From Escherichia phage E26, in sequence record MN655998.1: 64,000 nucleotides of DNA; one strand, written 5' to 3'. Shown in pieces: positions 17,487 to 18,626 of the stretch; positions within the stretch are counted from its first letter, which is position 1; each line of letters begins with the position of its first letter. The notes beneath the pieces were generated by a model. The model did no database searches. It saw only the letters and a program-made list of their open reading frames with translations, and was not told where the DNA came from. The translations under genes were made by a program, and so were the position numbers.

Positions 17487-17779
17487 TAATTAATCTCCAA
17501 AAATCCAGCAAGACCTAAACCGATATAAGTCCAGATACCAATAAAAAAGATGTTAATGCTCATGGCAAGGATAAACCATTTCAGCGTTTTGGGATACCCA
17601 ACCCAATATTCCCGACCATCTTCTAACCGGATCAACTTATTGCCTTGCGAGTCCATATCAACGACAACATGTTTATTTCGAGATTGCAATAGATATTGTT
17701 TTACAATCTCTACACCCGCCATAATAACAATAACGAAAATAAAAGTCCACACAACAAGATTAATGATAGTCTCAAGCAT
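17486..17779 (-). CDS. hypothetical membrane protein
   Basis: Two hydrophobic segments; ATG at 17779. Confidence 0.45.
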   Translation of the reverse strand: MLETIINLVVWTFIFVIVIMAGVEIVKQYLLQSRNKHVVVDMDSQGNKLIRLEDGREYWVGYPKTLKWFILAMSINIFFIGIWTYIGLGLAGFLEIN

Positions 17780-17990
17780 TTTCTATCACCTCCACCCAAT
17801 CAGGTGTTTCCTGAAAGACTCCTTCACCTTCATGATGGTCGCAACCTTTATTGCTACAATACATCCACCAATCCCACATTCCCCACGGTAAACGCTGCAT
17901 ATCGTCGTTACAGCAAGTGAATATAATAGGCCAACCACATCTAACACATCGGCAGTTTTCTTTCATGTGAGCGGTATTAGGCTTCTTCAT
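17772..17990 (-). CDS. Cys-rich small protein (possible zinc-binding)
   Basis: CRCVRCGW...CCND...C...C cluster; ATG at 17990 overlaps upstream stop (ATGA). Confidence 0.45.
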   Translation of the reverse strand: MKKPNTAHMKENCRCVRCGWPIIFTCCNDDMQRLPWGMWDWWMYCSNKGCDHHEGEGVFQETPDWVEVIENA

Positions 17991-18181
17991 AGATGACTCC
18001 AATATAATCGACATTTACATTTAGGGCAATGCGGTTCTTTAATATAATACCCGTCTGTCTTTGGAACACTAACAGGAGCGGTTTTTATATTGTATTCAGT
18101 GAAACAACGAAAACAAGTTACGTTTTCTACAGACTGACGTTTCACCCAATCACCGGAATATAGATCATTTTTATTTGTCAT
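17987..18181 (-). CDS. Cys-rich small protein (possible zinc ribbon)
   Basis: CFRC...CPKCKC motifs; ATG at 18181 with GGTGG RBS. Confidence 0.45.
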   Translation of the reverse strand: MTNKNDLYSGDWVKRQSVENVTCFRCFTEYNIKTAPVSVPKTDGYYIKEPHCPKCKCRLYWSHL

Positions 18182-18626
18182 ATTCAACCACCACAATGTT
18201 AATGTCTGGAGTAGCAATATTAATGATCTCTTCTACACATTCCCACTCAAGGCCACCGATACCGCAACCGATTTTAGGAATATAGAAAGGCTGTATAGCA
18301 CCTTCAAAAACATCATTGATAGTCTCAAATCCTTTCAGGATAGCACCATATTCAGCATTTGGACCCGGTCGGAATTGGGTATAGAGATTCACCCCGCACC
18401 AGTTATAACCATTAACTTGATGCGTCCAGACACTAAACCCACCCAGCTTTTCTACCTTACCGCGAGAAGTTTGCTTGTCAATCTCTAACGCTTGCGGGAA
18501 CTCTTTCGCGATCTTTGCAGCAATACCAGCGCCCATAGTATGAAAACAATTACAACCATGAATTAAATGACCGTTTCCTTGTTTAAACAGGGCGATGAGA
18601 TCGTCCTTTACAGTATCAATAATCAT
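18171..18626 (-). CDS. macro-domain-like protein (possible ADP-ribose binding/hydrolase)
   Basis: LIHGCNC followed by MGAGIAAKI resembles the macro-domain NAAN...GGGVxGAI core; assignment tentative. Confidence 0.45.
   Translation of the reverse strand: MIIDTVKDDLIALFKQGNGHLIHGCNCFHTMGAGIAAKIAKEFPQALEIDKQTSRGKVEKLGGFSVWTHQVNGYNWCGVNLYTQFRPGPNAEYGAILKGFETINDVFEGAIQPFYIPKIGCGIGGLEWECVEEIINIATPDINIVVVEYDK

Follow-up and report, generated by a model that had tools for sequence, protein, structure and literature searches.

The 64,000-nucleotide stretch of Escherichia phage E26 that we analysed (hereafter the window) carries, at 18171..18626 on the minus strand (stop codon included), the gene of a stand-alone macrodomain of 151 residues, which Pfam and PHROG matches, synteny, AF2 modelling and Foldseek identify as the ortholog of T4 tk.4 (adfM). 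We consider it likely, at roughly three in four, that its product undoes the marks set by DarT2 on phage DNA and that the two small cysteine-rich proteins encoded behind it are separate accessories. The feature is already known, the gene being annotated as tk.4 in near-identical genomes and its T4 ortholog having been given this function in 2025. As the tk.4, PF23903 and PF23895 families are all in public databases, the finding, though correct, is not a new one. Phage macrodomains that undo DNA ADP-ribosylation by DarTG2 are a current topic in phage-host conflict, and a reading of the sequence alone had correctly singled out a real counter-defence enzyme. To this our analysis adds that the Tk.4 family is of the Gln type, that it is very widespread, protein search having found homologues in 2722 phage records, and that the variable interval behind it holds two families of zinc proteins, one of which was apparently transferred along with tk.4.

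The tk.4 locus of a Krischvirus

The window belongs to a Krischvirus (an RB49/JSE/Phi1-like coliphage), with 98–99% nucleotide identity to JSE, Phi1 and RB49-type phages, and the 1.7-kb stretch that contains tk.4 and the two mini-protein genes is 90–99% identical across 58 phage genomes. All three ORFs are present, and all lie on the minus strand. In JSE and Phi1 the ORF at 18171–18626 is annotated as tk.4 with an ‘A1pp phosphatase motif’, and it matches phrog_335 at 1.2e-60.

Comparison with T4 establishes the orthology. T4 Tk.4 and the E26 protein share 43% identity over 150 of 151 residues (E=9e-44), are of the same length class (155 and 151 residues, respectively), score 166 and 204 bits with one and the same family profile and both carry the motifs HGCNCFHTMGxG, NLYTQFxPGPNxEY and PxIGxGIG, although T4 is a Tequatrovirus and thus from a different genus. 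Both genes occupy the slot between vs and tk, and the order vs.1-vs-tk.4-...-tk is common to the window, JSE, T4, RB14, S16, Q7622 and MM02. In E26 the upstream anchor of this synteny is vs, the valyl-tRNA synthetase modifier gene (18642..19001, minus strand; phrog_1256 at 1.8e-33, with JSE and T4 annotation), and the downstream anchor is the thymidine kinase gene tk (16890..17486, minus strand; ORF and annotation). The E26 macrodomain gene is therefore the syntenic ortholog of T4 tk.4. What follows tk.4 differs between the two phages: in E26 these are the zinc mini-proteins A and B, whereas T4 has tk.3, tk.2 and tk.1, which we checked as possible mini-protein homologues and found to be unrelated.

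The genes of this run are tightly packed. The tk.4 stop and the mini-protein A start overlap by 11 nt, the mini-protein A stop and the mini-protein B start share an ATGA, and the mini-protein B stop overlaps by 8 nt the start of the next ORF. The latter (17486..17779, minus strand) encodes a hydrophobic protein of 97 residues that belongs to phrog_16027 and has no Pfam, PADLOC or NCBIfam match; the two ends of this ORF overlap with mini-protein B and tk, respectively. Read from the sequence, each gene has its own Shine-Dalgarno-like GGAG or GGTGG 7–9 nt upstream of its start. The start/stop overlaps are generic T4-type gene packing, found throughout the vs.1-to-tk run. Scanning positions 16500–20500, we obtained 15 promoter-like sites against 12.2 expected from shuffled sequence, hence not above expectation, and no terminator within vs.1-to-tk, so that the scan does not allow an operon boundary to be claimed. 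The locus was also considered as an anti-defence island, and a homologue of Acb2 (T4 vs.4) was sought upstream of regB; the search gave no Pfam match.

Macrodomain fold and predicted active site

The preliminary description had read the ORF as macrodomain-like from LIHGCNC followed by MGAGIAAKI, which we locate at residues 21–27 and 31–39, and had called for structure prediction against macrodomain folds. Profile search, a high-confidence model and fold search all uphold this reading. Pfam Macro (PF01661) matches at 1.3e-6, with 28.7 bits against a cutoff of 22 and with the whole profile covered (positions 1–118 of 118). The AF2 model (pLDDT 95.8, pTM 0.91) displays the three-layer α/β/α macro fold, and Foldseek returns 196 PDB matches with E<=0.001, headed by macrodomains, among them TARG1, Poa1p, DarG and the coronavirus Mac1 domain. 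The ranking begins with human TARG1/OARD1 (PDB 4J5R/4J5S; TM 0.77–0.83, E=3e-10, 27–29% identity), the best structural match, followed by Poa1p, DarG, BT1257 and SCO6735. By sequence, the best match in the PDB is the Mtb DarG macrodomain (7.6e-8).

The resemblance to DarG (PDB 5M3I/5M31/5M3E; NF048014) extends to the fold, with TM 0.73–0.77, and to the proposed substrate, but not to the two-domain architecture, as the E26 protein is devoid of the C-terminal DarT-binding domain. Accordingly, the PADLOC DarG model matches at 9.4e-14 in its macrodomain part only. The protein covers no more than positions 9–141 of the 338 of NCBIfam NF048014 and of the 329 of the PADLOC model, and its NF048014 score of 46.5 bits compares with an equivalog cutoff of 250. 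There is also no darT beside tk.4, the neighbours being vs, which falls in a PHROG family, and mini-protein A; neither the two mini-proteins nor the 97-residue ORF has a PADLOC match. The E26 protein consists of one macrodomain that stands alone and is of the TARG1/DarG/SCO6735 (ALC1-like) class.

The high rank of Poa1p, almost equal to that of TARG1, bears on the question whether the protein might be a metabolic enzyme that has no part in defence, either an ADP-ribose-1''-phosphate phosphatase like Poa1p or an O-acetyl-ADP-ribose deacetylase like YmdB. Poa1p ranks second in the fold search (E=3e-10, TM up to 0.70), PHROG and RefSeq label the family ‘phosphatase / A1pp motif’, and JGI calls many of the homologues O-acetyl-ADP-ribose deacetylase. 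These labels, however, are homology transfers and not tests, and TM values are higher for TARG1 and DarG (0.76–0.83) than for Poa1p (0.64–0.70, at an rmsd of 4.7 Å). Moreover, the DarG HMMs of the defence-model collections (PADLOC, NCBIfam) match the E26 protein, and a phenotype in defence is known for the T4 ortholog. We hence regard a purely metabolic role as very unlikely.

Conservation across 106 homologues of the Tk.4 family (alignment A3) outlines a putative active site. Asn26 (codon 18549..18551, minus strand) is invariant and aligns to the Asn of the SCO6735 motif HVCND (Asn27); it also corresponds to the Asn that N23A replaces in PhiKZ AdfM, and the role of this active-site residue has been described for both proteins (PMC9411070, PMC13309987). 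Loop 1, M31-G-A-G-I-A36 (18519..18536, minus strand), is predicted to bind the diphosphate of ADP-ribose and corresponds in the alignment to MGAGIA in TARG1 and to MGKGIA in Mtb DarG; in it M31, G34 and A36 are invariant, while G32 and A33 are kept in at least 90% of the sequences. The predicted phosphate-binding loop 2, G120-C-G-I-G-G125 (18252..18269, minus strand), was found by alignment and conservation. It aligns to IGCGLAG of SCO6735, with G120 and G122 invariant and G125 kept in at least 90%.

Gln84 (codon 18375..18377, minus strand) takes the place of the catalytic lysine of DarG (K80). Y82 is invariant, and T83 and Q84 are kept in at least 90% of the 106 sequences; Q84 aligns to K84 of TARG1, to the first K of PTKK in Mtb DarG and to the Gln of NMIGQH in SCO6735, the essential Gln85. 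The catalytic dyad Lys84/Asp125 of TARG1 is replaced by Gln84/Gly124, and at least 90% of the family has a Gln in place of the DarG lysine. Since this lysine is absent, the mechanism must differ from that of DarG, and the substrate range could differ too. By alignment, N26, Q84, G120 and G122 correspond to N27, Q85, G126 and G128 of SCO6735, so that the E26 protein has the residue set of the SCO6735 (Gln) type. In SCO6735, Q85A abolishes the hydrolysis of thymidine-ADPr, and G126 and G128 are functionally implicated (PMC9411070).

SCO6735 from Streptomyces coelicolor (PDB 5E3B) is a Gln-type ALC1-like macrodomain of cellular, not viral, origin, and it resembles the E26 protein only weakly, with a phmmer E of 1.9e-5 and 22% identity when the structures are aligned. 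It has a five-residue insertion after the Gln that is absent from the phage protein, and an additional mobile structural element has been described for its subclass (PMC9411070). The aligned residues place the Tk.4 family as a whole, and with it T4 AdfM, in the Gln type of SCO6735 and not in the Lys type of DarG and PhiKZ AdfM. The family would then use a chemistry unlike that of the Lys-type enzymes, and N26 and Q84 are targets for mutagenesis.

Candidate substrate of Tk.4

The function of the T4 ortholog rests on genetic evidence reported in a preprint: tk.4 was the sole match in a genome-wide transposon screen of T4, its clean knock-out renders T4 sensitive to DarTG2, a defence that ADP-ribosylates thymidines in DNA, and the protein was renamed AdfM, for anti-DarT factor Macrodomain (bioRxiv 10.1101/2025.11.20.689424). 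Biochemical data come from two further proteins. The macrodomain gp104 of PhiKZ strips DarT2-made ADP-ribose from DNA in vitro (PMC13309987), and SCO6735 cleaves thymidine-linked ADP-ribose on DNA (PMC9411070). For the E26 protein itself, we infer substrate and DarTG2 phenotype from T4, PhiKZ AdfM and SCO6735; a literature search for DarTG2 together with Krischvirus returned nothing. The earlier suggestion that a phage macrodomain could erase a defensive ADP-ribose mark thus gains support through the DarTG2 phenotype of T4, and by the same analogy the relevant mark would be the thymidine-linked ADP-ribose that host DarT2 places on DNA, and neither a protein mark nor the products of Alt and Mod.

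Alternatively, the macrodomain might erase another ADP-ribose mark, be it on RNA as in CmdTAC-type defence, on host or phage proteins, or as made by the phage's Alt, ModA and ModB, and Tk.4 would then tune or reverse such marks instead of countering DarT2. Indeed, TARG1, the closest fold match, is a protein and nucleic-acid ADP-ribosylhydrolase, the Gln-type relative SCO6735 de-modifies proteins as well (PMC9411070), and the authors of the DarTG1 paper expect enzymes of this kind to counter other ADP-ribosylating defences too (PMC11825919). Yet in T4, tk.4 scored under DarTG2 only (bioRxiv 10.1101/2025.11.20.689424). The phage locus, too, speaks against this alternative, as no ADP-ribosyltransferase gene is adjacent to tk.4. 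The products of Alt, ModA and ModB are arginine-linked ADP-ribose, a linkage that macrodomains are not known to cleave, and this likewise counts against such a role. Altogether, we consider the removal of another mark unlikely.

For the reading that we prefer, reversal of the DarT2 mark, we propose the following mechanism. Early in infection, Tk.4 would bind the ADP-ribose on thymidine N3 of single-stranded phage DNA, a mark that would be written by the host DarT2 toxin of DarTG2 systems, and would hydrolyse the glycosidic bond, by which ADP-ribose would be released and replicable DNA restored. The chemistry would probably be SCO6735-like, with Gln84, held by Asn26, positioning the distal ribose, with the Gly-rich loops 31–36 and 120–125 holding the diphosphate, and with no Schiff-base lysine. 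By hydrolysing the DarT2 mark, Tk.4 would act as an orphan antitoxin mimic. The antitoxin mimic of ICP1 is reportedly also a stand-alone phage macrodomain that serves as orphan anti-DarT2 antitoxin. The same holds for PhiKZ gp104, which is imported into the phage nucleus (PMC13309987); it is of the Lys type (FPTKDNW), however, and where the E26 protein scores 204 bits with the profile of the Tk.4 family, gp104 reaches only 40.

Two zinc mini-proteins between tk.4 and tk

Both mini-proteins are genuine conserved genes and ordinary members of their families. Mini-protein A (17987..18181, minus strand; 64 residues) is a predicted four-Cys zinc ribbon that matches PF23903 (Phage_zn_bind_2) over its full length at 1.1e-23 (83.3 bits, cutoff 27) and phrog_4864 at 2.7e-34, with homologues in 233 phage records. 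It likely starts with the ATG at 18181 and not with an upstream TTG, in agreement with the JSE RefSeq annotation. The CxxC...CxxCxC cluster noticed beforehand is present as C23xxC26...C52xxC55xC57; C23, C26 and C52 never vary among 31 homologues, C55 is kept in at least 90% of them, and C57 is not conserved. The AF2 model (pLDDT 81.7) has no significant match among PDB folds (best E=0.68), and those listed are generic zinc ribbons, found in ribosomal proteins, in subunits of RNA polymerase and in the zinc module of Sir2; function can thus not be inferred from the fold.

Mini-protein B (17772..17990, minus strand; 72 residues), a predicted Cys/His zinc-binding protein, matches PF23895 (Phage_zn_bind) over its full length at 3.9e-34 (116.9 bits, cutoff 27) and phrog_2306 at 3.5e-34, and has homologues in 785 phage records. 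Its start is likely the ATG at 17990, again as in the JSE RefSeq annotation. Here the expected CxxC...CC cluster takes the form C13xC15xxC18...C25C26...C45xxxxC50xxH53, in which C15, C18, C45, C50 and H53, but not the CC pair, are invariant in six Straboviridae genera. Longer ORFs were inspected for fusion partners of mini-protein B in L082 and L078 and showed no Pfam domain beyond PF23895. A literature search for PF23903, PF23895 and Phage_zn_bind found no mention of them.

The preliminary description had further joined the macrodomain and the two Cys-rich ORFs into one unit. In such a module, a zinc ribbon might anchor the enzyme on ssDNA or, like the C-terminal domain of DarG, block DarT2 directly. 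Apart from the start/stop codon overlaps among tk.4, mini-A and mini-B, genomic context offers arguments for it. Of 27 metagenomic loci with mini-A, 14 have a Tk.4-type macrodomain within 5 kb and on the same strand, and in six genera of the Straboviridae mini-B lies 0–2 genes downstream of tk.4. A comparison of Krischvirus with Vequintavirus shows similarity in exactly tk.4 and mini-A and nowhere else (68% and 74% at the nucleotide level); their proteins are 65–67% and 74–83% identical between the two groups but just 32–46% and 43–52% identical to their own relatives. Being closer across the two groups than to their own relatives suggests joint transfer, and Vequintavirus appears to have received tk.4 and the PF23903 gene as a pair from a Krischvirus-like phage, which is the sole hint of a link between the macrodomain and a mini-protein.

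On the other hand, both mini-proteins are absent from T4, whose Tk.4 is still needed for DarTG2 resistance. Among 48 mini-B loci, about 20 lack a macrodomain within 4 kb, the distance to the macrodomain varies from 0 to 4.3 kb, and the fold search with mini-A yields nothing but generic zinc ribbons. Mini-A also occurs where the macrodomain is missing: in GAP32 and CBB it sits among NAMPT, 2H-phosphoesterase (Acb1-like), Sir2 and NUDIX genes, and in other lineages it adjoins an HD phosphohydrolase or a Dam methylase. These latter neighbours led us to drop the idea that mini-A is a dedicated partner of ADP-ribose/NAD genes. As only two or three independent lineages are involved, the association of macrodomain and mini-proteins is not statistically compelling. 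A functional unit is hence not supported, the overlaps being real but generic and T4 Tk.4 working without the mini-proteins, and we think it unlikely that the macrodomain forms a module with one or both of them. Mini-A and mini-B would rather be separate small accessory proteins, predicted to bind zinc, in a hyperplastic tk.4-to-tk interval.

Equally speculative, in our view, is that the PF23903 protein, and perhaps that of PF23895, is a small anti-defence factor or cofactor travelling with AdfM-type macrodomains; for instance, mini-A might bind ssDNA or DarT2 and so play in trans the part that the C-terminal domain of DarG plays in cis. If so, the apparent joint transfer of tk.4 and mini-A into Vequintavirus would reflect selection for the pair, and the same selection would explain the occurrence of mini-A beside nucleotide- and NAD-related counter-defence genes (Acb1-like, Sir2, NUDIX, Dam).

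The number of mini-A relatives depends on the type of search: with the single sequence, one match was obtained in a large protein database, and with a profile 33. The lone single-sequence match departs from the family after residue ~33 and is probably frameshifted.

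A macrodomain orthologous to T4 Tk.4

The 151-aa ORF at 18171–18626 on the minus strand encodes a macrodomain. The preliminary description had proposed this fold from two motifs, LIHGCNC and MGAGIAAKI, which occupy residues 21–27 and 31–39, and the proposal is borne out by a full-length match to Pfam Macro (28.7 bits, cutoff 22) and by a confident AlphaFold2 model (mean pLDDT 95.8, pTM 0.91), built from an alignment of 106 homologues. The protein also matches phrog_335 (1e-60). Comparison of the model with the PDB by Foldseek returned 196 matches with E<=0.001, headed by human TARG1 (TM 0.77–0.83), yeast Poa1p, the DarG macrodomains of Thermus aquaticus and Mycobacterium tuberculosis, BT1257 and SCO6735. 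Among solved structures, a sequence search ranks the M. tuberculosis DarG macrodomain first (7.6e-8), and a search with the family profile BT1257, followed by TARG1 and DarG. Models of the DarG defence system match as well (PADLOC 9.4e-14; NCBIfam 46.5 bits, cutoff 250), restricted to their macrodomain part.

In phages JSE and Phi1, the gene is labelled tk.4, 'contains A1pp phosphatase motif'. T4 Tk.4 (155 aa) shares 43% identity with the window protein over the whole length (E=9e-44), its gene holds the same position between vs and tk, and the two proteins are orthologs. When a T4 transposon library was screened on a host expressing DarTG2, a defence system whose DarT2 toxin ADP-ribosylates thymidines in DNA, tk.4 was the sole significant hit, and its clean deletion rendered T4 DarTG2-sensitive, upon which the gene was renamed adfM (anti-DarT factor Macrodomain; 2025 preprint, 10.1101/2025.11.20.689424). 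PhiKZ gp104, a phage macrodomain of unrelated lineage also named AdfM, strips DarT2-made ADP-ribose off DNA in vitro and also relieves the toxicity of DarT2 (PMC13309987). Published work on the T4 ortholog thus supports the earlier idea of a phage macrodomain as eraser of an ADP-ribose mark set in defence; the mark is probably thymidine-linked ADP-ribose on DNA. The feature is already known, since near-identical copies are annotated in GenBank, homologues of the Tk.4 family occur in 2722 phage records and a function has been published for T4 Tk.4.

In one T4-like contig (L047, IMGVR_UViG_2974573174_000001, 3257–3807), the tk.4 macrodomain finds matches in two ORFs that overlap in different frames (E=6e-22 and 4e-23), which points to a frameshift and perhaps a loss of function in this adfM and recalls the truncated adfN of RB69.

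Active site and substrate

Across the 106 homologues, G24, N26, M31, G34, A36, D50, N80, Y82, P117, G120 and G122 are invariant, and at least 90% of the sequences retain H23, C27, G32, A33, T83, Q84, G88, I119 and G125. Gln84 occupies the catalytic-lysine position of TARG1 (K84) and DarG (K80) (PMC9411070): alignments place it opposite TARG1 Lys84 and opposite the first Lys in the PTKK motif of M. tuberculosis DarG. Gly124 stands where TARG1 has Asp125. SCO6735 from Streptomyces likewise has Gln in place of the catalytic Lys and cleaves thymidine-linked ADP-ribose efficiently, with water proposed to mediate the reaction; the enzyme depends on Gln85 (Q85A is inactive), which Asn27 supports, and Gly128 in the phosphate loop matters as well (PMC9411070). 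In a pairwise alignment, the window protein's N26, Q84, G120 and G122 line up with N27, Q85, G126 and G128 of SCO6735. Judged from these alignments, the Tk.4 family would work in a SCO6735-like way, and this Gln-type assignment for the whole family is new but minor. T4 Tk.4 shares the NLYTQF motif with the window protein, whereas PhiKZ gp104 carries FPTKDNW; the two proteins named AdfM are therefore of different catalytic types.

Legacy labels would make the protein a phosphatase or O-acetyl-ADP-ribose deacetylase. Poa1p is indeed a good structural match, yet a weaker one than TARG1 or DarG, and the labels are homology transfers. The phage's own Alt/Mod enzymes attach ADP-ribose to arginine, a linkage that macrodomains are not known to remove. 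A broader or different substrate, namely ADP-ribose on RNA or protein, is a less probable alternative, to be considered because SCO6735 also acts on proteins (PMC9411070).

The gene run and its two Cys-rich mini-proteins

The 1.7 kb of this region is 98–99% identical to Escherichia phages phiS, JSE, Phi1 and RB49-type isolates (genus Krischvirus, family Straboviridae). On the minus strand, the gene order is vs.1 (19009–19599), vs (18642–19001), tk.4, the 64-aa mini-protein A (mini-A, 17987–18181), the 72-aa mini-protein B (mini-B, 17772–17990), a 97-aa hydrophobic ORF (17486–17779) and tk (16890–17486). A mechanical ORF list places the starts of mini-A and mini-B further upstream, at a TTG or ATG; the ATGs at 18181 and 17990 are preceded by GGTGG or GGAG and are annotated as starts in JSE. 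With these starts, consecutive genes from tk.4 on overlap by 11, 4 (ATGA) and 8 nt. Consensus scans found no terminator within the vs.1-to-tk run and no more promoter-like sites than expected by chance.

Both Cys-rich ORFs are genuine conserved genes with Pfam and PHROG family matches. Mini-A belongs to PF23903 (1e-23) and phrog_4864; C23, C26 and C52 never vary among 31 homologues, and at least 90% of these have C55. Of its CxxCxC cluster as first described, the first two Cys are conserved and the third is not, because of which mini-A is predicted to be a classical 4-Cys zinc ribbon. A fold search of its model (pLDDT 81.7) against the PDB gave no significant neighbour, only generic zinc ribbons with E>0.6. 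Mini-B belongs to PF23895 (4e-34) and phrog_2306, and C15, C18, C45, C50 and H53 are invariant in six Straboviridae genera; the 'CC' pair initially singled out is not. A literature search found no paper mentioning either Pfam family, and PADLOC and NCBIfam hold no model for mini-A or mini-B. In environmental viral contigs (L082/L083, 3857–4531; L078/L080, 3692–4171), PF23895 is fused to extra segments without Pfam match, one a ~140-aa C-terminal segment, the other a ~80-aa Cys-rich N-terminal extension; the domain is therefore not confined to stand-alone mini-proteins.

Several neighbouring genes deserve mention. The 97-aa ORF (phrog_16027), which overlaps mini-B and tk, has hydrophobic segments at both termini, and is seemingly specific to this phage group; Pfam, PADLOC and NCBIfam searches returned nothing for it. 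Vs.1, publicly annotated only as 'hypothetical', combines a signal-like hydrophobic N-terminal segment with a weak Pfam match to the SLT lytic transglycosylase domain (8e-6, above cutoff). Between regB and nrdC.11, three small successive ORFs of about 111, 81 and 64 aa (20112–20944, minus strand) without Pfam match share the recurring pattern GK[LM]Y..TP....GYI.DD.G....I....C.HL....W and look like paralogues. NrdC.11 (20966–21664, minus strand) matches Pfam RlaP (3.7e-14; RNA repair pathway DNA polymerase beta family nucleotidyltransferase).

Linkage of the macrodomain and the mini-proteins

Evidence for a functional tie between the macrodomain and the mini-proteins is limited, and its sole positive hint is an apparent joint transfer. 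Between Krischvirus and Vequintavirus (rV5-like), two unrelated groups, similarity is limited to tk.4 (68% nt) and mini-A (74% nt), with amino acid identities of 65–67% and 74–83%, as against 32–46% and 43–52% to T-even-like phages and Mydovirus; likewise, the Vequintavirus proteins share only 34–35% and 50–52% with Mydovirus of the same subfamily. Higher identity across unrelated groups than to own relatives fits the joint transfer of two neighbouring genes and suggests that tk.4 and mini-A may have moved laterally together, a new but minor finding for tk.4 and the PF23903 zinc ribbon. In Vequintavirus, one 56-aa ORF separates the two genes (L003 (MaxBurger), 1791–2695; L011; L012).

Since co-transfer requires no more than that the two genes were neighbours in the donor, we consider it improbable that the macrodomain forms a functional module with one or both mini-proteins. 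Other observations bear on such a module. Neither mini-protein is present in T4, where tk.3, tk.2 and tk.1 are unrelated to both, yet T4 Tk.4 is required for DarTG2 resistance (10.1101/2025.11.20.689424). Mini-B follows tk.4 at a distance of 0–2 genes in Krischvirus, Tequatrovirus RB14, Mosigvirus, Gelderlandvirus, Kanagawavirus and Slopekvirus, a synteny shared inside one family. Of 48 mini-B loci, about 20, mostly from other kinds of contigs, lack a Tk.4-type macrodomain within 4 kb. For mini-A, such a macrodomain occurs on the same strand within 5 kb in 14 of 27 IMG/VR loci, the distance being 0 in Krischvirus and reaching 4.3 kb in Mydovirus. The immediate neighbours of mini-A are Acb1-like 2H phosphoesterase and Sir2/NUDIX genes in Mimasvirus jumbo phages and a Dam methylase in Alexandravirus-like jumbo phages, and in Mydovirus mini-A comes after an HD hydrolase.

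The Mimasvirus cluster (L004 (GAP32), 1–4409; L006 (CBB), 1–4890) reads NAMPT, membrane protein, unknown gene, Acb1-like 2H phosphoesterase (Pfam Acb1, 58–59 bits), PF23903 zinc ribbon, Sir2 and NUDIX, and looks like an NAD/cyclic-nucleotide counter-defence neighbourhood. Several T-even-like genomes (L033, 3443–5120; L041, 3134–3274; L044, L046, L052, L053) carry a short PF23903 homologue of about 45 aa, the core zinc ribbon only, immediately downstream of tk and not beside tk.4; some genomes have both mini-B beside tk.4 and mini-A after tk.
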